Positions 6,754 to 60,500 of a stretch of DNA of 64,000 nucleotides are shown piece after piece. Made by a program: the position numbers and the translations under genes. A model generated the notes under the pieces. That model did not search any database. It had not been told where the DNA came from and saw nothing but the letters and a program-made list of their open reading frames with translations. Position 1 is the first letter of the stretch; every line of letters begins with the position of its first letter. Where the stretch lies: NCBI GenBank assembly GCA_019242475.1, contig JAFAVK010000078.1, positions 18,809-82,808 of the forward strand, given 5' to 3'. The stretch is from Acidobacteriota bacterium. Lineage in GTDB: Bacteria; Acidobacteriota; Blastocatellia; Pyrinomonadales; Pyrinomonadaceae.

Positions 6754-6780
6754 CCAATCGCCGACGGTCGAAGTCAAGAG

Positions 6781-8913: not shown

Positions 8914-8927
8914 TGATCGGGAGCCAG

Positions 8928-18229: not shown

Positions 18230-18347
18230 TCCCCTTCCGACCTTCCACGTAAACCGCATCTTGTCCATGAAAAGAGATATATGCTGGCCGCACTCAGAAG
18301 GCAAGGGCTTAACCCGTCGGGGCGGGCGCCATCTCACGCGCGGGGTT

Positions 18348-18375
18348 TTGCCGCGCCGGCCGCACCGCTTAAAAT
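18348..18375 (+). promoter_or_regulatory. Promoter candidate for the 2-hydroxyacid dehydrogenase gene
   Basis: TTGCCG (18348..18353), 16-nt spacer, TAAAAT (18370..18375), about 45 nt upstream of ATG 18422, which has an AAGGA Shine-Dalgarno 8 nt upstream. Confidence 0.3.
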
Positions 18376-18421
18376 GCGTGTGCAAACGCTCTCGCACTTC
18401 CGACTTCTAAGGACAAGCCGA

Positions 18422-29437: not shown

Positions 29438-29471
29438 TTCACATGGCGAGTCAACGCGCTTACGCAGTGCG

Positions 29472-34514: not shown

Positions 34515-34566
34515 CCGACCCCCGCACGCGTTCATAAACTCGTCTTTAAAGTCTCGAAGCACCGCC

Positions 34567-39361: not shown

Positions 39362-39368
39362 AAAACTC

Positions 39369-41585: not shown

Positions 41586-41640
41586 CTTTACTACTCGCCT
41601 TCCCTTCCTTGTTGGTTGCGCAAGTGTAGCGGCACGGGCC

Positions 41641-41684
41641 AAAGGAAAGGAAGGCAGAGGGGCGCGGCCGTGGCCCCTCTTGCC
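41641..41684 (-). terminator. Intrinsic-terminator-like hairpin plus U-rich tract after the second receptor gene
   Basis: On the minus strand: GGCAAGAGGGGC-cacggccgc-GCCCCTCTGCC (plus-strand 41653..41684, 11 bp with one bulged T). It is followed by UUCCUUUCCUUU (plus-strand 41641..41652). It starts 23 nt after the stop codon at 41708..41710. Confidence 0.55.
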
Positions 41685-45397: not shown

Positions 45398-45460
45398 TAA
45401 TAGACTCCTTGCCATGAGGGAAGTTTCATCCGAGATCGGCGGACGGCCGCGCGGCCCGGC

Positions 45461-45481
45461 TTAGTTGACAGCTTAAACTAA
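45461..45481. promoter_or_regulatory. 21-bp palindrome TTAGTT-N9-AACTAA, candidate ROK-repressor operator
   Basis: TTAGTTgacagcttaAACTAA with perfect 6+6 arms, about 64 nt upstream of the receptor start codon. A second copy with the same span is at 51908..51928. Confidence 0.45.
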
Positions 45482-45562
45482 CGGGGCAAAACCTTGAACT
45501 ATGTTGGACGCTTTACGCGAGTCGGGGAGCGACTTGCAGCAGACTTAACCCTGCGAAGCGTG

Positions 45563-45591
45563 CTTATACCACGCCCGGAGCCCTGGCGCAA
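45563..45591 (-). promoter_or_regulatory. Extended -10 promoter candidate (TGGTATAAG) for the 16-gene unit
   Basis: The minus strand reads TTGCGC (45591..45586), 17 nt, TGgTATAAG (45571..45563). The same 9-mer core recurs at 52057..52049 (-) and 52149..52157 (+), each time pointing at the downstream gene. Confidence 0.35.
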
Positions 45592-45655
45592 CAGATTTGT
45601 TTACGACAACAACTTTCCCTGCGATCCGCTCGCCGACAGCGGCCATCTCCGAAGG

Positions 45656-47059: not shown

Positions 47060-47139
47060 TCCCTTCAACGCCTCAAAGGTTATACGGACTCTTGCCCCCG
47101 CCATTCGGCGGGACTTTTCTCGACCTTGCGCCTCTCCCT

Positions 47140-48933
47140 TCAACGCGGGATGACCGGCAGGACGAGCGTGGAGGCGCGCGCCGCGTCGTGAAAGACCTTC
47201 TGCTCGGCCTTCCCCGTGCGCGACGAGACGGAGGACGGCTCGCCCGTGTTGAGGTTGCGGTCGAAGCGCGGGAAGTTGCTGCTCGACACGTAGAGGCGTA
47301 TGCGGTGGCCGGCCCTGAACAGGTTGCTCGTCGCCCAAAGGTCAACGGTGTACTTGTAGACGCGGCCGGGCACCAACTTCTCCGCGCGCGTGCTCGCGTC
47401 GCGGTAGCGCGCGCGCACGACGCCGTCGGTCAGGAAGCGCGCGTAGCCGTCCGGCGAGACGTCCACGAGCATCGCCGTGAAGTCCGTGTCGGGCGCGGAG
47501 GTTGACGCATAAAGTTCGACCGTGACGAAGCCCGTCACCTCCGTCTCCCTTTCGAGCGGCGGCGTCGAGAAGACGAGCACGTCCCGCCGCCCTTCGTTCG
47601 GGCGCTGGTCGAAGGGGCCGGGCGGGAGCGCCTGGCCGCAGCAGAGGCGCCCGCCGATGGTCGGCACCGGGTCGGCCGGGTCGTAGACGAACTCGTCGGG
47701 ACGCTCCTCGCCGGGCGCGTTCGTCGAGAGCGAGCCGTCGCCCGCGGCCGTGGCCGCGCCGCGCGAAGAGTGCAGGAAGTATTTCGTGTAGCGCGTGCGC
47801 GCGAGCGGGAACTCACGCTCCGAGCGCCAGACGTTCTCGCCCATGACGAAGAGCGAGACGGGCGGCGCCGTGGCGTACTCGTTCTGCACGCCCTTCAAGG
47901 CGTAGTCGAACCAACGGAGCGCCGTCCCCGTCATGTCGAGCACCGCGCTCTTGCCGAACGTCACGTCGCCAACCTTGCCTTCGGGCGAGGTCGGGGCGTG
48001 CGCCCACGGCCCGACGATGAGGCGCTGCCCCTCGCGCACGGCGGCCGTCGCGCCGCGCTCGCGCAGCCCCATGTAGTTTTTGATCGAGCCCTTGAGGAAC
48101 AGGTCGTGCCAACCGCCCCCGTGCAGGCCCTTGACCGTCATCTCGCCGTAGTGATCCGAGATTTTCCACTGCCGCCAGTACTCGTCGTCGCGCTCGTGGC
48201 GCAGCCAGTCCTGGAAGTACGGCGCGAGGTCGGCCGCCGCGGGGGGCTTCAGCACCGGGTAACTTTCGACCGGGAGCGCCGCGACCCAATCCTTCGGCCG
48301 GGCGGTCTCGCCGGCTTTGCGCCGGAGCGTGTCCTCGGCGAGGATCGAAGTCCACGAGCTGGCGAACCACTGCAACAGCGCGCCGCTCTGGTAAGTCCAC
48401 CCGTCGTAATATTCGGAGGCCGTCACGTAAGGGAAGATGGCGAGGAGGTGAGGCGGGTGCGCCATCGCCGCGAGCATCTGCGTGGCCCCGACGTAGGAGC
48501 CGCCGAACATCCCGACCCGCCCGTCCGCGTAGTCGAGCGCGGCGGCCCACTCGACCGTGTCGTAGCCGTCCTGACCTTCGTACTTGAACGGGTAGAACTC
48601 GCCGCCCGACTCGTACCGCCCGCGCGTGTCCTGCAAGACCACGACGTAGCCGTGCGCCGCCAGCTCGCGCGCCATCCCGGCCTCGCCCCGACGGTCGTAC
48701 GGCGTGCGTTCGACGAGCACGGGAAACTTTCCCTGCGCGCGCGGCCGGTAGATGTCCGCGACCAGCTCGACTCCGTCGCGCATCTTCACACGCACGCCGT
48801 CCTGCGTGACGACCTCGAAGAGAATCTCGTCGGCGGATGCTGCGCGGGCGGATGATTGAGCGCTCGCGTGGAAGCCCGCGCAGAGCAGGACGACGGCCGC
48901 GAGCGCCGCCTTCATGAACGTGTTCACACGCAT
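47140..48933 (-). CDS. CocE/NonD-family hydrolase (S15 X-Pro dipeptidyl-peptidase fold), secreted
   Basis: Start at MRVNTFMKAALAAVVLLCAGFHASAQ (ATG 48933). DGVELVADIYRP...FPVLVERTPYDR, the nucleophile elbow MFGGSYVGATQ, and a C-terminal jelly-roll (VTGFVTVELYASTSAPDTDFTAMLVDV...RIRLYVSSSNFPRFDRN). Confidence 0.85.
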   Translation of the reverse strand: MRVNTFMKAALAAVVLLCAGFHASAQSSARAASADEILFEVVTQDGVRVKMRDGVELVADIYRPRAQGKFPVLVERTPYDRRGEAGMARELAAHGYVVVLQDTRGRYESGGEFYPFKYEGQDGYDTVEWAAALDYADGRVGMFGGSYVGATQMLAAMAHPPHLLAIFPYVTASEYYDGWTYQSGALLQWFASSWTSILAEDTLRRKAGETARPKDWVAALPVESYPVLKPPAAADLAPYFQDWLRHERDDEYWRQWKISDHYGEMTVKGLHGGGWHDLFLKGSIKNYMGLRERGATAAVREGQRLIVGPWAHAPTSPEGKVGDVTFGKSAVLDMTGTALRWFDYALKGVQNEYATAPPVSLFVMGENVWRSEREFPLARTRYTKYFLHSSRGAATAAGDGSLSTNAPGEERPDEFVYDPADPVPTIGGRLCCGQALPPGPFDQRPNEGRRDVLVFSTPPLERETEVTGFVTVELYASTSAPDTDFTAMLVDVSPDGYARFLTDGVVRARYRDASTRAEKLVPGRVYKYTVDLWATSNLFRAGHRIRLYVSSSNFPRFDRNLNTGEPSSVSSRTGKAEQKVFHDAARASTLVLPVIPR

Positions 48934-48997
48934 CTCGCTGCCCCTCCGGGAGTCGCCGCCGGTTCCGACGGCGGATGAACACCCGCGCGTCTGTTCT

Positions 48998-50590
48998 TCA
49001 GCCCGCGGCGCGGCGCATGAAGTAGACGAGCTGGCTCGAAAACTGGAAGGCCCAGTTGAAGGCACGCGCGGGCCGGTTGACGTTGAGCTTGACGGCGAGC
49101 GGGAAGAGCCTGTCGAAGCGTGCGCGGTAACGGGCGCGCTGCCGCGGGTCGCGGCTGAAGAAGAGCCCCAACGCGAAGCTGTAGGCCATCTCGGCGTTGT
49201 GCATCTCCATGTCCGGCCCCTCGGCGCCCGGCGGCTCCTTCGGGTCGAAGGCCGCGAAGCAGTTGATGACGTAATACGCCTTCGAGCCGTCGGGCACCAT
49301 CCCGCGCCGGTCGAGGAAGTCGCACCACTTCGTCACCATCTCCGGCACGCGCCTGTCGTTCGTCAAAGTCCAGTAGTGGAAGAGCGGGTCGAGCAGCAGC
49401 GCCATCATCCACGCGGAGGTCGCGCCGTGGAAGGTCGCCTCGTTCGGGTCGTACTTCTCCCAGTCCTGCCGCAAAGAGCCGTCGGGCGGCCGCCCGTCCG
49501 GCGGCTGTCTTTGATGTTTATAATAAGCATCCGCACATTCGCGCGCCTTCTCCCAGTAGGCGCGCTCGCCCGTCATCTCCCAGCCGTGCAGGACGCCGAG
49601 CAGGCCGTAGCCCTGGTGCCGCAGCGTCCAGAAGTTGCGCCCCTTCTCCGGGTCAACGCCGAGCGCGACGGGCTTAATATTTTCAGGGCGGTAGACGGGC
49701 TCCTGGTGTTTCAGGCAGTAGCGCGCCATCGCCTTCCCCGCTTCGAGCGCGCGCTCGTCGCCCGTGAGCAGGTAGTGCACGTGCATCGCGCGCGGGTAGA
49801 CGTATTTGAGGTCTGGCCCCTTCAGCGTGAAGATGCCCGCGTCCTCGCCCTCCATCTTCGTGTGCGTGCGGACGAAGTGCGCGGCCGTGTACGCAGCTTC
49901 GAGGAACTTCCGGTCGCCCGTGCGCGCGTACATCTTGTACCAGCAGGTGGTGCGGTCGAAGAGCCACTCGTGGTAGACCTGGCTGTCGATGAAGGCGAGC
50001 GACCCCGGGAAGTTGCGCTCGACGAAGCGTTCGTACGCGGCGTACTCGCCCGACTCCGCCGCGGGCGTCTGCGGCCCGACGACCAGCGACTCGCAGAGCC
50101 ACGCCGCGGGCAGGACGGCCAGCACGCGCGGCCCCTTCAACCCTTCCCCATCAATCAGCGTCCGCGCGACGGGAACGAACTCCACGTCGCCGCGCCCCCG
50201 CGCCCTCTCGAAAACGACCCTAGCTTTCTGCTCGCGCGCGCGGCTGAAGTCGGCCCGGAACTGGACGAGCAGGGAGCGCACGCCGCCCTCGCGGCCGCCC
50301 GTCCGCCACGGCTCAAGCGAACGAATCGCCGCCCTCACCTCCGCGCCTGCCGCGTCCAGGACGCGCGCGCGTCCCGCGTCCGACAGCAGCCCCGGCGGCA
50401 GGGGCAAGCCGAAGCTCACGACCTCCTCGCGCCCAAGGTCTTCGGCGCGCCCGACGAGCGTCACCTCAACCTCGCGCGTCTTCGCGCGTGCGGCGAAAGA
50501 GCCCGACCCCAGCGCCGCGCGACCCGCCGCCAGCGCGGCAAAGCCCGACGAAAGAAAACCCCTGCGCGAGATGGAAGATTTCAACATCAC
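48998..50590 (-). CDS. Tat-exported protein of unknown function (helix-repeat, possibly alpha/alpha-toroid glycan enzyme)
   Basis: 530 aa. Twin-arginine signal (SISRRGFLSSGFAALAAG). An N-terminal roughly 170-aa region, then Trp/Tyr/His-rich helical repeats (WYKMYARTGDRKFLEAAYTAAHFV, YLLTGDERALEAGKAMARY, GWEMTGERAYWEKARECADAYY). I recognise no family motif. Confidence 0.6.
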   Translation of the reverse strand: MMLKSSISRRGFLSSGFAALAAGRAALGSGSFAARAKTREVEVTLVGRAEDLGREEVVSFGLPLPPGLLSDAGRARVLDAAGAEVRAAIRSLEPWRTGGREGGVRSLLVQFRADFSRAREQKARVVFERARGRGDVEFVPVARTLIDGEGLKGPRVLAVLPAAWLCESLVVGPQTPAAESGEYAAYERFVERNFPGSLAFIDSQVYHEWLFDRTTCWYKMYARTGDRKFLEAAYTAAHFVRTHTKMEGEDAGIFTLKGPDLKYVYPRAMHVHYLLTGDERALEAGKAMARYCLKHQEPVYRPENIKPVALGVDPEKGRNFWTLRHQGYGLLGVLHGWEMTGERAYWEKARECADAYYKHQRQPPDGRPPDGSLRQDWEKYDPNEATFHGATSAWMMALLLDPLFHYWTLTNDRRVPEMVTKWCDFLDRRGMVPDGSKAYYVINCFAAFDPKEPPGAEGPDMEMHNAEMAYSFALGLFFSRDPRQRARYRARFDRLFPLAVKLNVNRPARAFNWAFQFSSQLVYFMRRAAG

Positions 50591-50628
50591 AAACAGACCC
50601 GCAGTGACCGCGCGCCGGCGACTACGCT

Positions 50629-51837
50629 TCAGGCGCCCAGGCCCAGTAGCCGCGCGGCGTTCTCGTAATAGACCTTCTTAAGGATTGTTTCGGGCAGTCC
50701 GAGGCCGTAGATGCGCCAGCGCCCCTGCGGCGGCTTCGGCGCCGGCGCGTAGTCGAAGTACTCGTCCTCCGTCTCCAGGAAGCGGAAGTAGATTTCGTAC
50801 AGCTCCTCGCCGAAGATCTGCTGCGGCGTCTCGCGCCCTTCGGGGACGGCGTCCGTGCCGAAGAGAATCCTGTCCTGATACCTGTCGAAGAACCTGCGCG
50901 CGGCACGCGGCTGGCGGCCCAGCTCGCCGATGCGCGCGCCGATCTCGACGTGCATGTTCGGGTAGCGGTCGAGCCACTCCGAGACCCAGTTCAAGTCCTC
51001 AGCGTCGCCGACGTGCAACACGACGAACTGTGTGCGCGGGTGGCGCGCGACGACGCGGTTGCGCGCCTCATGCAACTCTCGGTTGGTCGGGTAGTCGCGG
51101 CCGTGGAACGACCAGTCCGGGTGCGCGCTCAGCTCCTCGTAGCGCTCGTTGAAACGGTCGATGGGGAGGAAGAAAGCTTCCGGGTCGGAGGTGTGGACGG
51201 CGACCGGCATCCCGCGGCCGCCCGCCTCCTCCCACATCGGGTCGAAGCGCCGGTCGTCAACCTTCACGAGCGCCCCCTCCTGCACCCGCTCGCGCAGGTA
51301 CAGCCCGAGCGTCTTCGTCAACTTCAGCCCGCGCGCCCCGACCTCCCGCGCGCGCGCGATCTGTTCCGCCTGAAACCTCGGGTAGTCGGCCTCCGCGACG
51401 CGCGTGTACCAAGGCTCGGTGAAGACCAGGAACCGCTCCGCGTCGGCCGCCCTCAAAACGCGGACGGTCTCCTCAAGGGCCTTGCCGTACCCGCCCGTCA
51501 GGTTCACCATCGCGCGCACGTTCTTCCGCGCGATCACCGGTAGCACGTCCCCGGGCTTCGCGTTGAAGTGCGGGTGCTCGGCCTCGCCGAAACGGCCCGA
51601 CCAAGACAGGTGCGTGTGGAAGTCTATCGCCGGGAAGCGCGCACGCTCGACCTTGTGCGCCGGCACGTGGAGCATGCTCTTCGGCTCGTAGTCCTCTAGC
51701 GCTAGTTTCCCCTGAGGCTGCGCGCCCGCCGCCCCGCCGCCCCCCTCACGTCGCGCGACGGGGCGGGCGACCACCGCCCGGCCCAGCCCACCCAACGCGA
51801 CGCTCGCCAGCCAACGCCTGCGACTCAGACATCCCAT
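50629..51837 (-). CDS. Exported amidohydrolase_2-type TIM-barrel metallohydrolase
   Basis: 402 aa. Arg-rich signal (MGCLSRRRWLASVALGGLG). Metal motifs IDFHTHL, VAVHT, VLHVG, FGTDA, typical of PF04909-type amidohydrolases (memory). Confidence 0.8.
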   Translation of the reverse strand: MGCLSRRRWLASVALGGLGRAVVARPVARREGGGGAAGAQPQGKLALEDYEPKSMLHVPAHKVERARFPAIDFHTHLSWSGRFGEAEHPHFNAKPGDVLPVIARKNVRAMVNLTGGYGKALEETVRVLRAADAERFLVFTEPWYTRVAEADYPRFQAEQIARAREVGARGLKLTKTLGLYLRERVQEGALVKVDDRRFDPMWEEAGGRGMPVAVHTSDPEAFFLPIDRFNERYEELSAHPDWSFHGRDYPTNRELHEARNRVVARHPRTQFVVLHVGDAEDLNWVSEWLDRYPNMHVEIGARIGELGRQPRAARRFFDRYQDRILFGTDAVPEGRETPQQIFGEELYEIYFRFLETEDEYFDYAPAPKPPQGRWRIYGLGLPETILKKVYYENAARLLGLGA

Positions 51838-51907
51838 CGCGTTTAGCCCCCCTGTGGAGATTGGTTGAAGGCCATGCCATTTTGGACGACCATGAGCTTA
51901 TTTACAC

Positions 51908-51928
51908 TTAGTTTATGCCTCACACTAA
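51908..51928. promoter_or_regulatory. Second TTAGT-N11-ACTAA palindrome, candidate ROK-repressor operator
   Basis: TTAGTTtatgcctcacACTAA with perfect 5+5 arms (11 of 12 for the hexamers), about 71 nt upstream of the start codon at 51837. It has the same 21-bp span as 45461..45481. Confidence 0.4.
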
Positions 51929-52048
51929 CCGTCTGGCTGCCTTCGTGATTAAAGGCGAGCCTTGCAAACTTCGGGATGAGGGGGCATTTCCTCGGGCGAA
52001 CTTTCGTTGGGCACTCAGAGAGCCGCTACAGAACTCCACGGCGCGGGG

Positions 52049-52078
52049 GTTATACCATTCTGCGCGGACAGATTTCAA
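52049..52078 (-). promoter_or_regulatory. Extended -10 promoter candidate for the 4-gene minus-strand unit
   Basis: The minus strand reads TTGAAA (52078..52073), 18 nt, TGgTATAAC (52057..52049). Confidence 0.4.
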
Positions 52079-52127
52079 TAACATTCCTTTAAGTTTTATT
52101 ATTTTCCCGTCGGTCGTGCTTTTCTCC

Positions 52128-52157
52128 TTGTTTGAAATTAATCGTTGATGGTATAAG
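52128..52157 (+). promoter_or_regulatory. Extended -10 promoter candidate for Locus C
   Basis: TTGTTT (52128..52133), 18 nt, TGgTATAAG (52149..52157). It lies back-to-back with the minus-strand promoter candidate and about 145 nt upstream of the TTG start at 52303. Confidence 0.4.
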
Positions 52158-52181
52158 TGCGGGCCTGCACCCCGCGAGTAT

Positions 52182-52214
52182 GCAGACTCATTGAATTGTT
52201 CACAAAGAGTCTGC
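52182..52214 (+). promoter_or_regulatory. Perfect 8-bp stem-loop in the Locus C leader
   Basis: GCAGACTC (52182..52189), 17-nt AT-rich loop, GAGTCTGC (52207..52214). The 5' arm can alternatively pair TGCAG (52181..52185) with CTGCA (52165..52169). Confidence 0.4.
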
Positions 52215-52302
52215 CGGTCGCGTGTTTGTTGCCGGCCTCAACTAACCATTCAGGATAGACACATAAGCTAGTTGCCGGAGTTCGCCGTTGAGCTAATAGA
52301 TT

Positions 52303-54849
52303 TTGATCGCATCTGAGTTACAGCGCCTGATTGAGGAGACGTTCTCCTATTCAAACACCCGCCCGTCGGGCACGGGCGGGCGCGGGTCGGGTTTGACCGC
52401 CCACCCCGATCTAACCATCGCCGAATTCGACCCGGGGCCGTCCCTGCTGCGCTTGGCCTCGAAGGTGTATGTGCCCGGCGACGCGGCGCAGCTCGCCGGC
52501 CGGGTGAGACGAATCGGTGCGCTCTGCGGCAGGTTCAGGAAACTTTACGGGGACGGCCCCGTGAGGGTGCTCCGCGTGCCCGCGAGGATCAACATCCTCG
52601 GCGAGCACGTCGATTACGTCTCCTACATCCCGACGGCTTCGCTGCCCTTCGGTAGCCGCGAGCACGACATGCTCATGGCCTACCGCGCCGCCCAAGACGG
52701 CTCGGTGCGAGGGGCCTCGACGCTCGAAGAGTACGAGCCGTTCAGTTTCTCTCTGGCCGAGAGCGGGCTGCCGCCGGGCGCGGGGGCCGAGGGGTGGCCG
52801 TCATACCTGCAACAGGTCAAGCAGCCCGCGCCGCACTGGAGCAACTACGTGAAGGGCGCCGCCTACTTTGCCGCGGCGAAGTACGGCGGGCGGCTGCGGC
52901 GCGGCTGCGAGTTCGTGGTGGACTCCGGCATCCCGCCGAGCGGCGGGGCCTCGTCGTCTTCGGCGCTGATCGTGCTCGCGGGCGCGGCCATCAGGGAGGC
53001 CAACGGCCTCGCCTACGGGGCCGAGGAGTTGGCGCTCGACTCGTCGCAGGCGGAATGGTTCGTGGGCACGCGCGGCGGGGCGATGGATCACCTGACGATC
53101 TGCCTCGCGAGGGACGGTCACGCCGTCCACATCCCCTACCTGGGGCCGCGCGTGAGCGTCGTCCCCGTGCCGCACAGCGCCCGGTTCCGCTGGGTCACGT
53201 TCTTCTCCCACCCGGCCGACAAGGGGCGGGAGGTGATGCTCGGGTATAACGAGCGCGCGGTCGTCTCGCGCCTGCTCATCCCGGCGATCATCGAGGGCTG
53301 GAAGTCGGAAGCGCCGTCTCTCGACGACGCGTGGGTGCGGGCCGTCGAGGCGTTCGGCGAAGACCCCTGCGGCGCGCACGGCCTCGAAGGCTTTCTCGAA
53401 AGGCTGCCCGAGTCCCTGATGCTCGCCGAAGTCGAAACCTCTTACCCGGAGGCGTACCGCCGCTGCCTGCTCGACTTCCCCGCCCTCGTGCATGAGCGCC
53501 GGGACGAGCCGCTGCGGGTTCGTCCGCTCGCGCTGCATCACGCGGGCGAGGCGAGGCGCGTGGCGGCGGCCGTCAAACTCCTCGAAGGCGCGGCCGGGGG
53601 CGGCGCGGGCGAGGCCGACTCTCTAATGCACGCGGTCGGCGCGCTGCTCGACGAGAGTCACAGGAGCCTGCGCGACAACTACGGCGTGAGCACGCCCGAG
53701 GTCGAGGCGCTGGTCGAGACCGTCCGTTCGGACGCGGGTGTCTACGGCGCGAGGCTGATGGGTGGGGGTTTTGGCGGAAACGTCCTTGCGCTGACGGCCG
53801 CCGGGAACGTGTCGGCGCTCGTCGAGCGCGTACAGAGCGGCTACTACGCCCCGCGCGGGCGCGAGGCGGCGCGCGAGGGCTCGGTCATGATCTCGACGCC
53901 GGGCGAGGGGCTGGCGCACCTCGACCCCGAGCGCGCGTGGCGTGAGGGCGTCGAAGAGTTCAACATGCTCCCGGCGGCGTCGGACGAAGAGCGCCGCCGC
54001 TGCGGGGAGTTACTCGCACGCGCGGCGGGCACTGTCAATCCCTTGGAGGTCTGGCCCGTCGTCGTCGCCGCCGGCAAAGGCGCGCGCGCGCAGGCGTCGG
54101 GGCTCGACGTGCCGAAGCCGCTGGCGGAGGTGTGCGGCGTCCCGTCCATCGTGCGCGTGCTGCGCAACGTGCGGGCCGGGCTCGGCGCGACCCGCACGCC
54201 CGTCGTCATCGTCTCGCCCGAGACCGAAGGCCCCGTGCGCGCCGCGCTCGAAGGCGAGGACGTTCATTTCGTCACGCAGGCCGAGGCGCTCGGGACGGGC
54301 GACGCGGTGCTGCGCGCGCGCGAACTGATGAAGGACTTCGACGGGCGGGCGCTCGTCGTCTGGGGCACGCAGCCCGTCATACGCCCCGAGACGTACCGGC
54401 GCGCGGCGGCGCTGGCCGCGCTCTTCGGCGAGTACGCGATGGTCTTCCCGACGGCCCTGAAGGAGTCGCCGTACGCGCCGGTCGCGCGGGACGAAGGGGG
54501 GCGCATCACGGGCGCGCGTGAGACGCACCTTGAAGGGGCCGAGCGACCGCCGCTCGGCGAGACCAACGTCGGCCTGTTCATGCTTAAGAGCGAGGAGATG
54601 TTCGAGGCCCTTGCCGAACTGCGCCGCCTCCATTGGCGCGAGGGCGAGCGACGCTACGAACGGGCGGGCGGCGAGTTGGGCTTCCCGAACGAGATGGTCA
54701 AACACTTCGCCGGAAGGCCCGCGGGCGTCTTCGCCTGCGCGTTCGCCGACCCACGCGAGGAGCAGGGCATCAAGACGCTCGCGGACGTTGCGCGCTGCGA
54801 GCAGTTCATACGCGAGTTCGAATGCGAAGAGAAGGGCTTGGAGGCTTAA
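52303..54849 (+). CDS. Bifunctional fusion: galactokinase-like GHMP sugar-1-kinase (N) + GlmU/RmlA-like sugar-1-phosphate nucleotidylyltransferase (C)
   Basis: 848 aa. GHMP motifs RVPARINILGEHVDYV, GIPPSGGASSSSALIV, GARLMGGGFGGNVLAL and the GalK-type Asp context GTRGGAMDH. From about residue 583: VVVAAGKGARA...PKPL, QAEALGTGDAV, VVWGTQPVIRPET, NVGLFMLKS. The TTG start at 52303 is uncertain. The in-frame GTG codons near 52465 are alternatives. Confidence 0.85.
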   Translation: MIASELQRLIEETFSYSNTRPSGTGGRGSGLTAHPDLTIAEFDPGPSLLRLASKVYVPGDAAQLAGRVRRIGALCGRFRKLYGDGPVRVLRVPARINILGEHVDYVSYIPTASLPFGSREHDMLMAYRAAQDGSVRGASTLEEYEPFSFSLAESGLPPGAGAEGWPSYLQQVKQPAPHWSNYVKGAAYFAAAKYGGRLRRGCEFVVDSGIPPSGGASSSSALIVLAGAAIREANGLAYGAEELALDSSQAEWFVGTRGGAMDHLTICLARDGHAVHIPYLGPRVSVVPVPHSARFRWVTFFSHPADKGREVMLGYNERAVVSRLLIPAIIEGWKSEAPSLDDAWVRAVEAFGEDPCGAHGLEGFLERLPESLMLAEVETSYPEAYRRCLLDFPALVHERRDEPLRVRPLALHHAGEARRVAAAVKLLEGAAGGGAGEADSLMHAVGALLDESHRSLRDNYGVSTPEVEALVETVRSDAGVYGARLMGGGFGGNVLALTAAGNVSALVERVQSGYYAPRGREAAREGSVMISTPGEGLAHLDPERAWREGVEEFNMLPAASDEERRRCGELLARAAGTVNPLEVWPVVVAAGKGARAQASGLDVPKPLAEVCGVPSIVRVLRNVRAGLGATRTPVVIVSPETEGPVRAALEGEDVHFVTQAEALGTGDAVLRARELMKDFDGRALVVWGTQPVIRPETYRRAAALAALFGEYAMVFPTALKESPYAPVARDEGGRITGARETHLEGAERPPLGETNVGLFMLKSEEMFEALAELRRLHWREGERRYERAGGELGFPNEMVKHFAGRPAGVFACAFADPREEQGIKTLADVARCEQFIREFECEEKGLEA

Positions 54850-54852
54850 GGG

Positions 54853-56178
54853 ATGGCGGTCGCTGACGACGCGGTGGTCGGGCGCCGGCCCGCGGGGAGG
54901 CTGCGCTGGTGGATCGGCGGGCTGCTCTTCGCCTCGACGGTCATCAACTACGTTGACCGCCAGACCCTCTCCAACCTCGCCCCCTTCCTCAAGAAGGACT
55001 ACGGCTGGACGAACACGGACTACGCGTATCTGATCATCTCCTTCCGCGTTGCTTATTCGATAGGCCAGACTCTCTGCGGCCGGCTCGTGGACAAGCTCGG
55101 CACGCGCCGCGGGCTCACGCTGTCGGTCATCTGGTACTCGGCCGCCTCGGTGCTCACGTCGCTCGCCACGGGCTTCTACAGCTTCGCGGCCTTCCGCTTC
55201 CTGCTCGGCATCGGCGAGTCGGCCAACTGGCCCGGGGCGACCAAGGCTGTCTCCGAGTGGTTCCCGAAGCGCGAGCGGGGCCTCGCGACCGCGCTCTTCG
55301 ACAGCGGCTCCTCCATCGGCGGAGCCGTCGCGCCCTTCATCGTCCTCGCCATCTACTTCCGCTGGGGCTGGCGCCCGGCCTTCGTCGTGCCGGGGCTCCT
55401 CGGCCTCCTCTGGCTCGCCGCGTGGCGCAGGTTCTACCACACGCCCGAGACGCACCCGCTCATCGGCGACGAAGAGCGCGAGATGATCCGCCGCGACAAG
55501 CTCGAAGACGAGCCCGAGTCGGGCACGCGTCCGCGCACGCGCTGGTCAACCCTCCTGAGTCTCCCGCAGACGTGGGGGACGATTGCGGCGCGCTCTTTGA
55601 CCGACCCCGTCTGGTTCTTCGTCACCGACTGGTTCCCCGTCTACCTCGTCGCCAAGGGCATCAAGCTCGAAGAGGGGCTCTTCGCCTTCTGGATACCTTT
55701 CGTCGCGGCCGACGTGGGCAACTTCTTCGGCGGCTGGGTGTCGGGCCACCTGATTAAACGCGGCTGGGCTTTGGGCGCGGCGCGCAAGGCCGTGGTCGTC
55801 TTCGGCGGCCTGGGCGTGACGGCGCTCATCCCGACAATCCTGACGACGAACCTCTTCGCCATCGCGGCGCTCTTCGGCTTCGCCACCTTCTCCTACGCCT
55901 GCTTCACGACCATCGCCAACGTGCTCCCCTCCGACCTCTTTCACAGCGAGTCGGTGGCGTCCGTGAGCGGGCTGAGCGGGACGGGCGCGGGGCTGGGGAC
56001 GATTGCGGCCTTCCTGCTCGTCGGCTATGTTTCGGACGCGCGGCAGGCCACGGGCACGCACGCCTTCGACCCCATCATCGTCGTGGCGGGACTGATCCCG
56101 CTCGTCGGCATGGCGCTCGTGCTGCTGCTCGTGCGCAACACGCGCGCCACCGACACAGGGCTCGTGCGGCGCATCTGA
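54853..56178 (+). CDS. MFS transporter, ExuT/ACS-like (paralog of 6781..8124)
   Basis: 441 aa. LRWWIGGLLFASTVINYVDRQTLSNLAP motif and 12 hydrophobic spans. GGAGG 8 nt before the ATG, 3 nt after the upstream stop. Confidence 0.85.
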   Translation: MAVADDAVVGRRPAGRLRWWIGGLLFASTVINYVDRQTLSNLAPFLKKDYGWTNTDYAYLIISFRVAYSIGQTLCGRLVDKLGTRRGLTLSVIWYSAASVLTSLATGFYSFAAFRFLLGIGESANWPGATKAVSEWFPKRERGLATALFDSGSSIGGAVAPFIVLAIYFRWGWRPAFVVPGLLGLLWLAAWRRFYHTPETHPLIGDEEREMIRRDKLEDEPESGTRPRTRWSTLLSLPQTWGTIAARSLTDPVWFFVTDWFPVYLVAKGIKLEEGLFAFWIPFVAADVGNFFGGWVSGHLIKRGWALGAARKAVVVFGGLGVTALIPTILTTNLFAIAALFGFATFSYACFTTIANVLPSDLFHSESVASVSGLSGTGAGLGTIAAFLLVGYVSDARQATGTHAFDPIIVVAGLIPLVGMALVLLLVRNTRATDTGLVRRI

Positions 56179-56188
56179 ACTCTGAAAG

Positions 56189-57535
56189 ATGAGACCACTA
56201 AAGATCGGCATCACTGGCGTGCGCGGCGTGGTCGGCGAGACCTTCACGCCGGAGCTGGCCGTCGGCTTCGCGCAAGCCTTCGGCACGTACCTGGACGGCG
56301 GGCGCATCCTCGTCAGCCGCGACACGCGCCCCTCGGGGCCGATGGCGCGCGCGGCGGTGCTCGGCGGGCTCATGGCCGCGGGCTGCGAGGTCGTTGACCT
56401 CGGCGTCTGTCCGACCCCCTCGATGCAGCTCGCCGTCGTGCGCGCGGGCGCCGAAGGGGGCATCGCGGTCACCGCGGGGCACAACCCTTCGCAGTGGAAC
56501 GCGCTCAAGTTCGTGCGCGCCGACGGGCTCTACCTCAACCCGGCGCAGGCCGAGGAACTCTTGGACATCTTCCACCAGGGCGAGTTTGCAAAGGCGACGT
56601 GGGACAGGGTCGCGCGTCGCGTCGAGGAGGCCGACGCCGTCGCCGGCCACATCGAGACCCTGCTCAAATCGTTCGACGCCGAGGCCATCCGCGCGCGGCG
56701 TTTGAAGGTGGCGGTTGACTGCTGCAACGGCGCCTGCGCGCGGCTCATCCCGCGCTGGCTCGAACAGCTCGGCTGCGAGGTGCTCGCCGTCAACGACGAC
56801 CCGACGGCGCCCTTCCCGCACAGCCCCGAGCCGAAGCCGGAGACGATGGCGCAGCTCCGCGCCGTCGTGAAAGCGGGCCGCGCCGACGTGGGGTTCGCGC
56901 ACGACGCCGACGGCGAGCGCTTAGGGATTGTGACGGAGGAGGGCACGCCGCTCTCGGAGGAGGCGACGCTCGCGCTCGCCGCCGAGATACTGCTCCCGCG
57001 GCGGCCCGGCACCGTCGTCACGAACCTCTCGACGAGCGGCGCGGTGGACATCGTCGCCGCGCGCCACAACTCAACGGTCGTCCGCACGCCCGTCGGTCAG
57101 GCTTATATTTCCGAGGCCATCGTCGAGACGGGGGCCGTGCTCGGCGGCGAGGGAAGCGGGGGCGTCTCGCTCCCCCGTGTGCACCCCACGCACGACAGCG
57201 CGGCGGCCGTCGGCCTCATCCTCGAACACCTCGCGCTCTCGGGCGAGACGGTGTCGGCGGCGGCGGCGCGGCTGCCCCGCCTCTCGATGGTCAAGCACAA
57301 CGTCAAGGTCGAGCCCAACCAGATATACTCGCTGCTGCAACGCCTGCGCGCGCAGGCCGAGCAAGAGGGGCGCGTCTCCGACCTGACCGACGGCGTCAAG
57401 TTCGAGACGGCCGGCGGCTGGCTCCACGCGCGCGCCTCGAACACCGAGTCCATGATCCGCCTCATCGCCGAGGCCCCCGAAGAGCGCTCCGCCCGCGACC
57501 TCGTGGACTGGGCGCGCGATAGATTGAAGAGATGA
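56189..57535 (+). CDS. alpha-D-phosphohexomutase-family protein, divergent copy lacking the canonical phosphoserine
   Basis: 448 aa with the four-domain PGM/PMM/GlmM layout. The active-site loop reads TAGHNP (Gly codon ggg at 56477..56479) instead of TASHNP. The metal loop is DADGER instead of DxDxDR. The sugar loop is GGEGSGG. The phosphate loop is RASNTES. Confidence 0.85.
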   Translation: MRPLKIGITGVRGVVGETFTPELAVGFAQAFGTYLDGGRILVSRDTRPSGPMARAAVLGGLMAAGCEVVDLGVCPTPSMQLAVVRAGAEGGIAVTAGHNPSQWNALKFVRADGLYLNPAQAEELLDIFHQGEFAKATWDRVARRVEEADAVAGHIETLLKSFDAEAIRARRLKVAVDCCNGACARLIPRWLEQLGCEVLAVNDDPTAPFPHSPEPKPETMAQLRAVVKAGRADVGFAHDADGERLGIVTEEGTPLSEEATLALAAEILLPRRPGTVVTNLSTSGAVDIVAARHNSTVVRTPVGQAYISEAIVETGAVLGGEGSGGVSLPRVHPTHDSAAAVGLILEHLALSGETVSAAAARLPRLSMVKHNVKVEPNQIYSLLQRLRAQAEQEGRVSDLTDGVKFETAGGWLHARASNTESMIRLIAEAPEERSARDLVDWARDRLKR

Positions 57536-58893
57536 GAGCGATTCCGACACTGAAGATCAGCATCTCGGGCGTGCGGGGCGTGGTCGGCGATAGCTTGACG
57601 CCGACGCTGCTCGTGCGCTTCGCGCAGGCGTTCGGCACCTACGTCGGCTCGGGCACCGTCGTCATCGGCCGCGACACGCGCACGTCGGGCGAGATGGTCA
57701 AGCAGACGGTCGTCGCGGGGCTCCTCTCGGCGGGCTGCCGCGTCGTGGACGTGGGCGTCTGCCCCGTCCCCACCGTGCAGGTGCTCGTGCGCCACGTCGG
57801 CGCGCAGGGCGGCATCTGCATCACGGCGAGCCACAACCCGGCGGAGTGGAACGCGCTCAAGTTCATCGGCCCCGACGGCCTCTTCCTCGGCCCCGGCCCC
57901 GCGCGCGAGCTGCTCGACATCTACCACCAGGGCGAGTACACGAAGGTCTCGGGCGCGGAGATGCGCACGGTCGAGGAACTCGAAGGTGCGACCGACGTAC
58001 ACGTCCGCGCCATCCTCGACGCGCTCGGCCCGCTCCCGGCCCGCGAGCGCAAGCTGCGCGTCGTGCTCGACTCGTGCAACGGCGCGGGCTCGGTCGTCAC
58101 GCCGCGCCTGCTCGAAGCGCTCGGGGCGGAGGTCTTCACCGTCAACACGACGCCCGACGGGCTCTTCCCGCGCCCGGCCGAGCCGCTCCCCGAAAACCTC
58201 GGCGAGTTGTGCGCGGCGGTGCGCGAGCACGGCGCCGACCTGGGGCTCGCGCAGGACATGGACGCCGACCGCCTCGCCGTCGTGGACGAGGCGGGCCGTC
58301 CCGTGGGCGAGGACTACACGCTCGTGCTCGCCGCGCTCTACGTGCTCGGGCGCGAGCCGGGGCCGGTCGTCGCGAACCTCTCCACTTCGAGCGCACTCGC
58401 CGCGGCGGCCGCGCGCTTCGGCTGCGAGTTGACGCTCTCGAAGATCGGCGAGGCGAACGTGACCGAAGAGATGCGCCGGGTCGGGGCGGTCGTCGGCGGC
58501 GAAGGCAACGGCGGCGTCATCTACCCGCGCATCAACTTCGGCCGCGACAGCCTGGTCGGCGCCGCGCTCGTCCTCCACCTGCTGGCCGAGTCGGGCCAGA
58601 CCGTCTCGGAGATTCTGGCGACGCTCCCGCCCTCCTTCGTGGTCAAGGAGAAGCTGGCCTGCCCTTCGGACAAGATCAAGGTGGCGCTGCGCATGGTCGA
58701 GCGAGAGTACGCGGGCTACCCTTCCGACCGCCGCGACGGCGTCAAGGTCTTGCTCCCCGACGGCTGGTTCCTCGTGCGCGGCTCGAACACCGAGCCGATC
58801 ATCCGCGTCGTCGCCGAAGGCCCGACCGAAGCGCGCGCGCGTGAGATCGTCGAACAGGTCTTCGCGCGCGTGCGCGTGGCGGTGACTTCTTAA
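57532..58893 (+). CDS. alpha-D-phosphohexomutase (phosphoglucosamine/phosphomanno/phosphoglucomutase type), canonical copy
   Basis: 453 aa with all four canonical loops: ITASHNP (Ser codon agc at 57829..57831), DMDADR, GGEGNGG, RGSNTEP. The start overlaps the upstream stop as ATGA (57532..57535). Confidence 0.9.
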   Translation: MRAIPTLKISISGVRGVVGDSLTPTLLVRFAQAFGTYVGSGTVVIGRDTRTSGEMVKQTVVAGLLSAGCRVVDVGVCPVPTVQVLVRHVGAQGGICITASHNPAEWNALKFIGPDGLFLGPGPARELLDIYHQGEYTKVSGAEMRTVEELEGATDVHVRAILDALGPLPARERKLRVVLDSCNGAGSVVTPRLLEALGAEVFTVNTTPDGLFPRPAEPLPENLGELCAAVREHGADLGLAQDMDADRLAVVDEAGRPVGEDYTLVLAALYVLGREPGPVVANLSTSSALAAAAARFGCELTLSKIGEANVTEEMRRVGAVVGGEGNGGVIYPRINFGRDSLVGAALVLHLLAESGQTVSEILATLPPSFVVKEKLACPSDKIKVALRMVEREYAGYPSDRRDGVKVLLPDGWFLVRGSNTEPIIRVVAEGPTEARAREIVEQVFARVRVAVTS

Positions 58894-58904: not shown

Positions 58905-59564
58905 ATGATTGAAGCGGTCATCTTCGACATGGACGGCGTGCTCATCGACTCCGAGCCCTTCTGGCAGGAGTCGGAGATCGAAGCCTTCGGCCGCACGGGG
59001 CTGCGCCTGACGCGCGAGATGTGCATGCAGACGATGGGCCTGCGCGTGGACGAGGTGGTCGAATACTGGCACCGCCGCCACGGTTGGGAGGGCTTCGCCG
59101 CGGGCGAGTTGGAAGAGGCGATCGTCGGCGGCGTCGAGCGGAGGATTCTTGAGAAGGGCGAGGCGATGGGGGGCGTGGAATACGCGCTCGACTTCTTTCG
59201 CGGCCGCGGCGTGAAAGTCGCGCTCGCCTCCTCCTCGGCCTACCGGCTCATCCGCGCCGTCACGGAGCGCTTCCGTCTCGCCGACAGGTTCGACTGCGTC
59301 TACTCGGCCGAGGAGGAGGAGTACGGCAAGCCGCACCCGGGCGTCTACCTGACGACGGCGCGCAGGCTCGGCGTGAAGCCCTCCGCCTGCCTCGCCATCG
59401 AAGACTCTTTCAACGGCGTGCTCGCGGCCAAGGCGGCGCGCATGAAATGCATCGCCGTCCCCGAAGAGGGCGCGCGCCGCGACCCCCGGTTTGCCATCGC
59501 CGACGTGGTGCTCGGCTCGCTCACGGAGATTGACGAAGAGGTCTGGCGCCGCCTGAGCGACTGA
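58905..59564 (+). CDS. hxpB: HAD-IA sugar phosphatase, HxpB/YniC-like
   Basis: 219 aa. FDMDGVLIDSEPFW, GLRVDEVVEYW, LASSS, YGKPHPGVYL, AIEDSFNGVLAAKAARMKCIAVP, DPRF...LGSLTE. This is near-colinear with my memory of E. coli YniC (HxpB). Confidence 0.75.
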   Translation: MIEAVIFDMDGVLIDSEPFWQESEIEAFGRTGLRLTREMCMQTMGLRVDEVVEYWHRRHGWEGFAAGELEEAIVGGVERRILEKGEAMGGVEYALDFFRGRGVKVALASSSAYRLIRAVTERFRLADRFDCVYSAEEEEYGKPHPGVYLTTARRLGVKPSACLAIEDSFNGVLAAKAARMKCIAVPEEGARRDPRFAIADVVLGSLTEIDEEVWRRLSD

Positions 59565-59576: not shown

Positions 59577-60500
59577 ATGAGCTACGCAATCGGCATCGAC
59601 CTCGGCGGCACGAACATCAAGGCCGTGGCCGTCAACGAAGACGGCGACGTGCTCGCCCGAACGTCGGCGCCCACGCACGGGGACGGCGTGGCTGACGAAG
59701 ACGGCGCGGCCGTGGCGCGAAACGTCGCGCGGCAGTTGGCGGCGCTTGAGACGGAGGTCGGGCGGACGGCCGCGGCGGTCGGGCTCGCCGCGCCGGGGCT
59801 CGTGGCGCGCGACGGCCGCTCGATGGCTTCGATCAGCGGCCATCTCGAAAGCGTCGAGGGGCTCGTCTGGGCCGAATACCTCGGCGGGCGTGCGCCCGCG
59901 CTGCTCAACGACGCGCACGCCGCGCTCGTCGGCGAAGTCTGGCGCGGCGCGGCCGCGGGCGCGCGCGACGCCGTGCTGCTCACGCTCGGGACGGGCGTCG
60001 GCGGCGCGGTGCTCGCGGAGGGGCGGCTGCTGCGCGGGCACCTCGGGCGCGCGGGGCACCTCGGCCACATGTGCCTCGACGTGGACGGCGCGCGCGACAG
60101 CCTCGGCATCCCCGGCACGCTCGAAGAGGCCGTCGGCAACCGCACGCTCCCCGAGCGCTCCGCCGGGCGCTTTCGTTCGACCGCAGAACTCGTCGCGGCA
60201 TACCTCGCGGGCGACGCGGAAGCGGCGCGCGTCTGGCTGCGGTCGGTCTTCCAGCTCGCCTGCGCCGTGACGAACATCATCAACGCCTTCGACCCGGAGG
60301 TCTTCATCATCGGCGGGGGCGTGGCGCGCGCCGGGCGGGCGCTCTTCGACCCACTCGCCGAGTACCTCGACGGGATGGAGTGGCGGCCGCAAGGGCACCG
60401 CGTCCGCGTAGTGCCGGCCGCGCTCGGCGACGCGGCCGGCGCGCTCGGCGCGGCCCGCAACGCCGAGCAGTCTTCAAGCGGGAGTTCGAATCAACAGTGA
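59577..60500 (+). CDS. ROK-family sugar kinase (no HTH domain), atypical: lacks the Zn-binding Cys motif
   Basis: 307 aa. ATP site IGIDLGGTNIKAVAV. ROK signature LTLGTGVGGAVLAEGRLLRGHLGRAGHLGHM. Where ROK proteins normally carry CxCGxxGCxE this protein reads DSLGIPGTLEE. Confidence 0.8.
   Translation: MSYAIGIDLGGTNIKAVAVNEDGDVLARTSAPTHGDGVADEDGAAVARNVARQLAALETEVGRTAAAVGLAAPGLVARDGRSMASISGHLESVEGLVWAEYLGGRAPALLNDAHAALVGEVWRGAAAGARDAVLLTLGTGVGGAVLAEGRLLRGHLGRAGHLGHMCLDVDGARDSLGIPGTLEEAVGNRTLPERSAGRFRSTAELVAAYLAGDAEAARVWLRSVFQLACAVTNIINAFDPEVFIIGGGVARAGRALFDPLAEYLDGMEWRPQGHRVRVVPAALGDAAGALGAARNAEQSSSGSSNQQ

Follow-up and report, generated by a model that had tools for sequence, protein, structure and literature searches.

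A GalK-like kinase fused to a GlmU-like nucleotidyltransferase in Pyrinomonadaceae: a putative bifunctional enzyme for UDP-sugar formation

The DNA analysed here is a stretch of 64,000 nucleotides from an Acidobacteriota bacterium of the family Pyrinomonadaceae (assembly GCA_019242475.1, contig JAFAVK010000078.1, positions 18,809 to 82,808). This whole stretch is called the window in the following and coordinates refer to it unless another locus is named. On its forward strand it contains a gene whose product of 848 amino acids joins a GalK-like sugar kinase of the GHMP superfamily with a GlmU-like nucleotidyltransferase (NT) in one polypeptide chain. This protein is probably a bifunctional cytoplasmic enzyme, i.e. 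an anomeric kinase and a UDP-sugar pyrophosphorylase with a hexose or hexosamine of galacto configuration as the substrate. We infer both activities, the use of UTP, the kind of sugar and the role of a particular lysine (K824) from the architecture, the motifs, the similarity in fold, the conservation and the synteny of the gene. It is an uncharacterised variant of the bifunctional kinase/pyrophosphorylases, and sequences of its kind are already public under generic names. The gene is composed as follows:

52303..54849, forward strand: whole fusion gene, 848 codons plus stop, TTG start
52303..52527, forward strand: N-terminal helical extension, residues 1-75 (AF2 helices 3-17, 44-55 and 61-82)
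52528..53922, forward strand: GalK/GALK2-like GHMP anomeric sugar kinase domain, residues 76-540 (Pfam PF10509, PF00288 and PF08544)
53923..54048, forward strand: two-helix interdomain linker, residues 541-582 (AF2 helices 542-555 and 561-577)
54049..54846, forward strand: GlmU-like NT domain, residues 583-848 (Pfam PF12804 and PF00483)

The four parts are also those into which the AF2 model of the whole protein divides (mean pLDDT 81.8, pTM 0.71). The first-pass annotation of this DNA had described a fusion of kinase and NT within a single open reading frame (ORF) and this description stands, since the continuous ORF recurs in hundreds of independent assemblies of varied source and a composition scan along the gene revealed no GC break at the kinase/NT junction. 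An in-frame TAG at 52297-52299 lies six bases before the TTG at 52303, which is the first start codon after it, and the residues that follow, (M)IASELQRLIE, resemble the start MIASELKSLI of the homologue P0097, with homologues starting at the same position. The upstream stop and the shared N-terminal residues together support this TTG as the start. That the single ORF arose artificially, by a frameshift or an assembly error that joined two neighbouring genes, is extremely improbable, because besides the recurrence and the unbroken composition the linker shows conservation and a predicted helical structure. Only one related locus speaks for a disrupted gene, and there a local error of that assembly is the probable cause. 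In this metagenome-assembled genome (MAG) from Blastocatellia (locus L064, 11553-12340) the NT part matches as two pieces about 20 nt apart and the gene for the S15 hydrolase is split too; both splits are probably frameshift errors of a long-read assembly and not true gene fission.

Conservation extends over the entire chain with the exception of most of the N-terminal extension, the residues 1-75 of which are poorly conserved except near their end and, with low pLDDT at 19-42, partly disordered in the model. In our alignment A1 (sequences 54-76% identical) about 190 columns are invariant across both halves, and even the linker contributes W546, R547, F553, N554, R564 and L571 to them. In 5.8 billion proteins 730 matches were obtained by a word-indexed search, and a profile search with the full-length alignment gave 858; the best 120 of the 730 all comprise 740-892 amino acids, contain both the GHMP and the NT Pfam domains and are 54-90% identical. 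Public databases thereby hold more than 800 full-length fused homologues. Scanning one genome per GTDB species revealed 205 relatives, and in 69 of the 80 loci kept, which were analysed by tblastn, the protein is fused. Most of these loci belong to MAGs of Pyrinomonadaceae/Blastocatellia, the closest one (L001, 89% identical) to an uncultured Pyrinomonadaceae bacterium. The invariant columns, the number of fused homologues and the share of fused loci taken together suggest that purifying selection acts on the whole fusion. The architecture is neither rare nor new to the databases. All database names are automatic and include "NTP transferase domain-containing protein", "galactokinase/CTP:molybdopterin cytidylyltransferase MocA", "N-acetylgalactosamine kinase" and "galk2". 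Fused proteins of 39-47% identity occur in MAGs labelled Planctomycetota, Poribacteria, Kiritimatiellae and Bdellovibrionota; their neighbours (a tRNA synthetase, an E1 dehydrogenase, a methyltransferase and a WYL protein) give no functional clue. In one Planctomycetota MAG (L066, 8825-9799, forward strand) a separate gene for a 325-aa NTP_transf_3 protein lies directly upstream of the fused gene.

The kinase half is recognised by three Pfam families, namely PF10509 (GalKase_gal_bdg, residues 77-106, 31.1 bits against a cutoff of 23.1), PF00288 (GHMP_kinases_N, residues 181-267, 45.2 bits against 22.3) and PF08544 (GHMP_kinases_C, residues 443-515, 38.0 bits against 21.0). The galactokinase equivalog TIGR00131 of NCBIfam covers residues 76-521 with 145.6 bits and stays under its cutoff of 226.65, so that by sequence the protein is GalK-like yet no equivalog of galactokinase. 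The galactokinase signature and the GHMP motifs II and III are all found and place it in the galactokinase-like branch of the GHMP superfamily. These motifs, like those of the NT half described further below (G-x-G-x-R, PKPL and GTGDA), were located exactly where the first-pass annotation had put them:

52579..52626, forward strand: galactokinase signature PARINILGEHVDYVSY, residues 93-108 (R95, E101, H102, D104), almost all residues invariant in A1
52930..52968, forward strand: GHMP motif II IPPSGGASSSSAL, ATP phosphate-binding loop, residues 210-222 (motif location and A1)
53071..53091, forward strand: RGGAMDH with the putative catalytic base D262, aligned with "tEGGGMDQ" of GALK2 and invariant in A1
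53245..53256, forward strand: Y315-N-E-R, sugar-pocket motif; Y315, N316, E317 and R318 invariant in A1
53758..53784, forward strand: GHMP motif III MGGGFGGNV, residues 486-494 (motif location and A1)

The residues R95, E101, H102, D104 and D262 are invariant in A1, and R95 and D262 align with the pair of Arg and catalytic Asp that GALK2 places at the anomeric hydroxyl. Human GALK2 (2a2c) is the best sequence match of the kinase half in the PDB with a continuous alignment over 72-537, followed by galactokinases. In a Foldseek search GALK1, GALK2, Gal1p and Gal3p appear on top, covering the kinase half only with a TM-score of about 0.75 (target-normalised), and this search of the PDB returned no solved structure that spans both halves. 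With GALK2 and with GALK1/GalK the window kinase shares the signature, motif II, motif III and the catalytic Asp; it differs from GALK2 by an identity of about 25%, by the extension of 75 residues, by the fused NT and by the tyrosine Y315. The latter is found in galactokinases (we take it to correspond to Tyr236 of human GALK1), whereas human GALK2 has Phe ("F-N-I-R") in the alignment. For AbGHMP (PDB 9ulx), a 498-aa relative of the kinase half, a literature search found no paper. In the proposed reaction the domain 76-540 would transfer phosphate from ATP to the anomeric hydroxyl of a galacto-configured hexose or hexosamine taken up from outside, R95 and D262 acting on O1 and E101, H102, D104 and Y315 holding the sugar.

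In the NT half the Pfam family NTP_transf_3 (PF12804) is found above its gathering score at 586-722, and together with NTP_transferase it covers 585-738. The GlmU models of NCBIfam match with their N-terminal halves only (residues 585-838, 40-72 bits against cutoffs of 367-725), and the best of them reaches 72 bits against its cutoff of 450. GlmU is the best match, in sequence as well as in structure. The top 35 PDB matches of the NT-only AF2 model (pLDDT 89.4) in Foldseek are all pyrophosphorylase domains of GlmU (best TM-score 0.77, root-mean-square deviation 2.2-3.4 Å), with ADP-Glc pyrophosphorylase and RmlA coming after them; by sequence comparison with the PDB, GlmU obtains 56 bits vs 22 bits for MurU. 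The MurU equivalog NF045761 gives 20.6 bits with a cutoff of 250, so that the protein does not represent the NT member of an AmgK-MurU pair. As the first-pass annotation had noted, the left-handed β-helix that carries the acetyltransferase of GlmU is missing: Pfam detects no hexapeptide or β-helix domain in the 848-aa protein and the chain ends at 848 after the NT fold. The following elements are of importance for its comparison with GlmU:

54067..54087, forward strand: AAGKGAR, the G-x-G-x-R NTP-binding loop, residues 589-595 (G591, G593 and R595 correspond to GlmU G14, G16 and R18)
54109..54123, forward strand: VPKPL, residues 603-607 (K605 corresponds to GlmU K25)
54277..54306, forward strand: QAEALGTGDA, residues 659-668 (Q659 and G664 correspond to GlmU Q76 and G81 of uracil recognition, T665 to T82)
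54361..54375, forward strand: W-G-T-Q-P, residues 687-691, with T689 at the position of a Mg2+-ligand Asp of GlmU
54520-54522, forward strand: codon of E740, corresponding to GlmU E154, 19/19 representatives
54556..54573, forward strand: GETNVG, with N755 corresponding to the sugar ligand N169 of GlmU, 19/19 representatives
54670..54693, forward strand: GELGFPNE, a subfamily-specific motif that ends an insertion relative to GlmU
54754..54774, forward strand: REEQGIK, with K824 at the second Mg2+-ligand position of GlmU, N227 (G-I-K 822-824)

An exhaustive HMMER search with the NT domain among 1.84 billion protein cluster representatives yielded 42 representatives at E < 1e-30, beyond which the matches trail off at length into ordinary NTs. 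Nineteen representatives of this subfamily (the window protein included) were aligned with GlmU-like sequences and E. coli GlmU by MAFFT; in the reference sequence of the latter, 12 of 12 residues numbered in the literature fell on the expected letters. G14, R18, K25, G81, Y139, E154 and N169 of GlmU are retained in 18-19 of the 19 representatives, Q76 in 16 and the position of T82 in 16-19; Y724 is kept in the window protein as well. The G-x-G-x-R loop and the ligands of uracil and sugar are thus those of GlmU, in contrast with the Mg2+ site. T689 stands at the position of D105 of E. coli GlmU and D102 of S. pneumoniae GlmU, as seen in the phmmer alignment to 1g95, in which L-V-I-A-G-D-T-P-L-I of the S. 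pneumoniae enzyme is opposed to L-V-V-W-G-T-Q-P-V-I of the window protein. The D105 column contains T in 12, S in four and D, A and V in one representative each (T/S 16/19), and T689 and Q690 are invariant in A1. The N227 column contains K in all 19 representatives and K824 is invariant in A1 too. The "downstream motifs" of the first-pass annotation therefore have to be qualified, since the canonical Asp of G-D-x-P and Asn of G-V-N are absent and W-G-T-Q-P and G-I-K are found instead. Judged by its sequences, this NT is a distinct subfamily with the signatures W-G-[TS]-Q-P, G-E-L-G-F-P-N and G-I-K, in which both protein ligands of Mg2+ are substituted.

Such a change could mean that the NT half is no working pyrophosphorylase but a regulatory or scaffolding module that binds a nucleotide or a UDP-sugar, the pathway then leading from the kinase via a mutase to catabolism. 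We regard this as quite unlikely. Replacement of D105 and N227 by Thr and Lys is what such a module might show, and there is a precedent in zebrafish DrGKUP, the pyrophosphorylase half of which had no activity in vitro. However, the other catalytic and substrate positions of GlmU, R18 and K25 included, are conserved in 16-19 of the 19 representatives, and the replacing Lys is invariant in all 19 of these distant sequences, as expected for a functional replacement and not for decay. A catalytic Lys near the α-phosphate is used by other enzymes of the NT fold, e.g. K213 of IspD, and in Fkp the residue K187 is documented to assist nucleotidyl transfer. Moreover, members of the subfamily are repeatedly fused or adjacent to enzymes that consume UDP-sugars. 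Since the site is otherwise intact and the Lys does not vary between phyla, we read the Lys/Thr change as a functional substitution, with Lys probably providing charge. The NT domain 583-848, tied to the kinase by the conserved two-helix linker, would then convert the sugar-1-phosphate and UTP to UDP-sugar and pyrophosphate. Its nucleotide and sugar ligands would be those retained from GlmU (G591, G593, R595, K605, Q659, G664, T665, Y724, E740 and N755), and the positive charge of the invariant K824 would probably stabilise the transition state at the α-phosphate.

An NT with another substrate, be it an IspD/TarI-like cytidylyltransfer to a polyol phosphate or the use of GTP, CTP or dTTP, with the consequence that the two halves would not act in succession, appears very improbable. 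Weak Pfam matches to IspD and MobA-like NTP_transf_3 and the MocA-like automatic names hint at it, as does G-I-K-T of the NT, which presumably resembles N-I-K-V-T around the catalytic K213 of IspD in motif only, as MAFFT places K213 two residues off K824 in a very divergent alignment that is too weak for equivalence. Against these hints stand the wide margin by which GlmU is the best match in sequence and structure, the conservation of the uracil-recognising Q76 and G81 and of the sugar ligands T82, Y139, E154 and N169, and the recurrent fusion, in both orders, with a GalK-like anomeric kinase, which speaks for consecutive steps.

This recurrence became apparent from other architectures of the same NT subfamily. 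The 887-aa proteins P0135 and P0301 have the NT at 98-355 and a GalK-like kinase at 368-865, i.e. the reverse order, and the halves of P0135 are 40% (NT) and 38% (kinase) identical with those of the window protein. Their gene (L081 8001-10664) sits between genes for a 949-aa NTP_transf_3 protein and an 881-aa protein with Polysacc_synt_2 of the UDP-HexNAc 4,6-dehydratase family (HexNAc, N-acetylhexosamine), the neighbours being found at L081 4775-7624 and 10675-13320. The locus lies on contigs of 124-209 kb from a JGI metagenome and is flanked by giant ORFs of about 5100 and 2500 amino acids, the shorter of which has NDK and methyltransferase domains. In P0139 (923 aa) NT, Polysacc_synt_2 and a GNAT acetyltransferase form one chain, and in P0137 a shorter GHMP kinase is joined to the NT. 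P0121 (275 aa) was considered as a free-standing NT; its contig measures 1.2 kb and it clusters with a protein of 783 aa, so that it is probably a fragment. The recurrence of such fusions argues for linked steps of kinase and NT, and also for an NT product that is a UDP-sugar of the type used by HexNAc-modifying enzymes. A domain order opposite to that of Fkp, emphasised by the first-pass annotation, holds for the window protein but does not define the group because P0135 shows the reverse order.

Eleven of the analysed loci match the kinase only (54-58% identity over residues ~60-541). Ten of these have a stop codon 0-9 residues past the end of the kinase match, the eleventh (L074) being cut by the contig end, and no NT was found by tblastn within 10 kb at any of the eleven; several retain the transporter and mutase neighbours described below. 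In a neighbour-joining tree of kinase domains, which is a rough distance tree and not a tested phylogeny, eight of these sequences form one clade nested in fused acidobacterial sequences, and the fusions from distant phyla are basal. Both features suggest an old fusion from which one lineage subsequently lost or separated the NT. An NT half that is no pyrophosphorylase would likewise agree with kinase-only orthologues next to mutases in the same operon.

The first-pass annotation had further proposed that the gene is the first one of an operon beside a degradative locus, and this is supported by a tight cluster of genes on the same strand and a divergent degradative cluster upstream. The gaps downstream of the fusion gene are 3, 10, -4, 11, 12, 19 and 24 nt, and the operon contains:

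54853..56178, forward strand: MFS transporter of the anion:cation symporter (DgoT-like) type (Pfam MFS_1; TIGR00893 with 234 bits, under cutoff)
56189..57535, forward strand: phosphohexomutase paralogue A, archaeal GlmM type, without the catalytic Ser (TAGHNP) and with metal loop DADGER
57532..58893, forward strand: phosphohexomutase paralogue B, archaeal GlmM type, with canonical TASHNP and DMDADR
58905..59564, forward strand: HAD sugar-phosphate phosphatase, HxpB-like, found in only few related loci
59577..60500, forward strand: ROK-family sugar kinase
60520..62373, forward strand: sodium:solute symporter (SSF) family transporter
62398..63357, forward strand: Gfo/Idh/MocA oxidoreductase

Loci of Blastocatellia share this arrangement; among the 80 loci the divergent cluster is common, and ROK kinase and mutase pair occur frequently. 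Its most constant member is the MFS gene, which lies immediately downstream in 51 of the 69 fused loci. The two mutases are tandem paralogues (47% identical, with an overlap of 4 nt) that both pass the cutoff of the archaeal GlmM equivalog. In paralogue A the metal loop D-x-D-x-D-R is replaced by D-A-D-G-E-R, and the Gly of TAGHNP is kept in 28/28 of its orthologues, as is the Ser of TASHNP in 24/24 orthologues of paralogue B. By sequence, paralogue A seems to be a mutase that has been conserved without its serine, as a pseudo-enzyme or as a partner subunit. An operon with a transporter, two GlmM-type mutases and a ROK kinase, set in a region for the use of glycans and amino sugars, counts in favour of a bifunctional enzyme for galacto-configured sugars. 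The UDP-sugar formed could be used for the synthesis of envelope or exopolysaccharide (salvage), or it could be 4-epimerised and converted via the neighbouring mutase to hexose(amine)-6-phosphate in a catabolism of Leloir/Isselbacher type. As kinase-only orthologues occur in the same operon beside mutases, the catabolic route seems at least as plausible as salvage.

Any single sugar is much less certain than the chemistry since the hints disagree. Leading candidates are galactose (Gal), galactosamine (GalN) and N-acetylgalactosamine (GalNAc). The global similarity of the kinase to GALK2, the GlmU-like sugar pocket of the NT and the HexNAc-type dehydratases among the NT fusion partners point to a HexNAc. 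The GlmM-type mutases of the operon as well as the GH123-like and NagB-like genes in the window point to a hexosamine or HexNAc, Tyr315 is galactokinase-like and not GALK2-like, E101 in the kinase together with the mutases suggests a free 6-OH, and the DgoT-like transporter suggests an acidic sugar.

The last hint leads to an alternative that we consider unlikely, in which the same chemistry would act on an acidic sugar, namely galacturonate (GalA), glucuronate (GlcA), an N-acetylhexosaminuronate or N-acetylmuramic acid (MurNAc), imported by the anion symporter and converted to the matching UDP-sugar acid; the protein would then be a functional analogue of plant GalAK plus USP or of the AmgK-MurU route. 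AmgK is not known to be a GHMP kinase. The MFS protein, present also in kinase-only loci, has its best match and nearest structural relative in the D-galactonate:H+ symporter DgoT of E. coli (6e9n, E = 8e-43) and keeps the equivalents of D46, R47 and E133 (Y-V-D-R, G-E-S-A-N-W-P), which points to an anionic substrate. The heparinase II/III-like lyases and the enolase-superfamily dehydratase in the window are typical of uronate-containing glycans, and the HAD phosphatase in the operon and the weak matches of the NT to MurU can be added. On the other side phosphohexomutases are unable to act on C6-carboxylates and yet the mutase pair is frequent in the operon, the NT is far nearer to GlmU than to MurU, and its fusion partners are dehydratases of the UDP-HexNAc type. 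Also E101 of the G-E-H motif is kept, a residue which is the ligand of the 6-OH in galactokinases and is replaced by Ala in plant GalA kinase.

Several observations weigh against a bifunctional enzyme for a neutral galacto-configured sugar. The NT lacks the two Mg2+ ligands canonical for its fold, and the scores of TIGR00131 and of all GlmU models are far under their cutoffs. The ten kinase-only orthologues in the same operon mean that the NT half is dispensable in some lineages and not obligatory for the role of the operon. The substrate hints conflict, with Y315 (Phe in GALK2) weakening the case for GalNAc and the DgoT-like neighbour, in which the carboxylate-binding Arg is kept, pointing to an acidic sugar. 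The MFS protein with its presumed anionic substrate sits oddly beside a neutral-sugar kinase and mutases. Finally, no gene for a 4-epimerase was seen among the annotated genes of the window, and the pyrophosphorylase half of DrGKUP is an unfavourable precedent.

Known natural fusions of a sugar kinase with a pyrophosphorylase are built differently. Fkp of Bacteroides fragilis and the plant FKGP resemble the window protein in that an anomeric kinase of the GHMP superfamily and an NDP-sugar pyrophosphorylase are combined for successive steps. The pyrophosphorylase of Fkp with its β-helix subdomain is N-terminal (residues 1-496) and the kinase C-terminal, whereas in the window protein the kinase precedes an NT without β-helix, the halves are GalK/GALK2-like and GlmU-like and the nucleotide is probably UTP instead of GTP. 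The assembly is likely to be independent of that of Fkp, as had been suspected in the first-pass annotation, since the halves belong to other subfamilies with GALK2/GALK1 and the GlmU domain as best matches and no Fkp chain was returned by the sequence searches of the PDB. Zebrafish DrGKUP, a glucuronokinase and putative UDP-glucuronate pyrophosphorylase, likewise occurs naturally as a GHMP sugar-1-kinase fused to a short NT of bacterial type (about 260 aa) that has no acetyltransferase part. It differs in being eukaryotic, in its N-terminal NT and in its C-terminal kinase of the glucuronokinase type, which is strictly specific for GlcA; its pyrophosphorylase activity was not demonstrable in vitro. 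GlmU itself shares with the NT half G-x-G-x-R, K25, Q76, G81, T82, Y139, E154 and N169, but possesses the β-helix, has D105 and N227 instead of T689 and K824 and does not have the insertion ending in GELGFPNE.

Man-made single chains from free sugar to UDP-sugar, consisting of a kinase and a uridylyltransferase, are NahK-GlmU and GalK-GPUT, in contrast with the natural window protein. NahK is not known to be a GHMP kinase, and GPUT is a transferase of the GalT type that uses UDP-glucose and not an NTP-dependent pyrophosphorylase of the fold found here. A 2024 paper reviewing such enzymes lists only the natural glucuronokinase/UDP-glucuronate pyrophosphorylase and an engineered fusion of NahK with a truncated uridyltransferase. 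Our literature searches, in agreement with the first-pass annotation, found no characterised enzyme with the kinase first and the NT second; the only fusions they returned were Fkp, DrGKUP and engineered ones. Provided that both halves are active, the window protein would be a natural single-chain catalyst from free sugar to UDP-sugar, made of other parts and in another order than Fkp/FKGP and DrGKUP. There is demand for such enzymes in the one-pot synthesis of nucleotide sugars, for which NahK-GlmU and GalK-GPUT had to be engineered, and a GlmU fold with Lys and Thr in place of the two Mg2+ ligands would be interesting for its mechanism. No new principle is involved as the fusion of consecutive pathway enzymes is common, and the domain order is less special than first thought; the altered NT centre, the fusion in both orders and the serine-less mutase merit follow-up. 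The gene also marks a conserved operon for sugar uptake and activation in Pyrinomonadaceae/Blastocatellia, abundant soil bacteria with poorly known carbohydrate metabolism. A more far-reaching proposal, possible but doubtful, is that the NT represents a new class of GlmU-fold uridylyltransferases, with Lys and Thr/Ser for the Mg2+ site, within a Blastocatellia-typical pathway from a galacto-sugar to the UDP-sugar. This pathway would be formed by the GalK-like fusion in either order, the canonical mutase and its serine-less paralogue, and its substrate would be a matrix-derived sugar, perhaps GalN/GalNAc of Pel- or galactosaminogalactan-like polymers, or an acidic derivative.

Upstream of the fusion gene the following features were found:

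51838..52302, no strand assigned: divergent intergenic region of 465 bp, presumed promoter region, ~48% GC vs 69% for the window
52182-52214: inverted repeat GCAGACTCATTG-(9 nt)-CAAAGAGTCTGC in an AT-rich region, ~90 nt upstream of the start of the fusion gene
41708..51837, reverse strand: divergent degradative cluster of five genes
50629-51837, reverse strand: Amidohydro_2 protein
48998-50590, reverse strand: ORF of 530 aa without Pfam or NCBIfam match
47140-49065, reverse strand: S15-family hydrolase
45656-47338, reverse strand: DUF4832/GH42-like protein
41708-45415, reverse strand: TonB-type outer-membrane barrel

The intergenic region contains no match to the sigma-70 or terminator consensus and no riboswitch or other Rfam family. 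The inverted repeat may serve as an operator or form a hairpin; it occurs only once in the window, and a search of 83 related loci did not find it.

From its gene content the rest of the window is a large region for the utilisation of glycans and amino sugars:

2013-3269 (forward strand) and 40347-41642 (reverse strand): ROK-type regulators
3398-6688: second TonB-type barrel
6724-8124: second MFS transporter
8913-10967 and 22459-24855: heparinase II/III-like proteins
10995-14237 and 15512-18397: BNR/sortilin-repeat proteins
14245-15504 and 21090-22442: two Amidohydro_1 proteins
24886-28254: protein with DUF5107 and TPR
28286-30590: enolase-superfamily protein and 2-hydroxyacid dehydrogenase
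32673-34562: GH123-like protein
34567-36315: SSF transporter
36351-37154: NagB-like protein
38057-39508 and 31324-32637, both reverse strand: ORFs of 483 aa and 437 aa without Pfam match, in degradative clusters

Together with the ORF at 48998-50590, the last two (38057-39508 and 31324-32637) have a third-position GC of 0.90-0.94.

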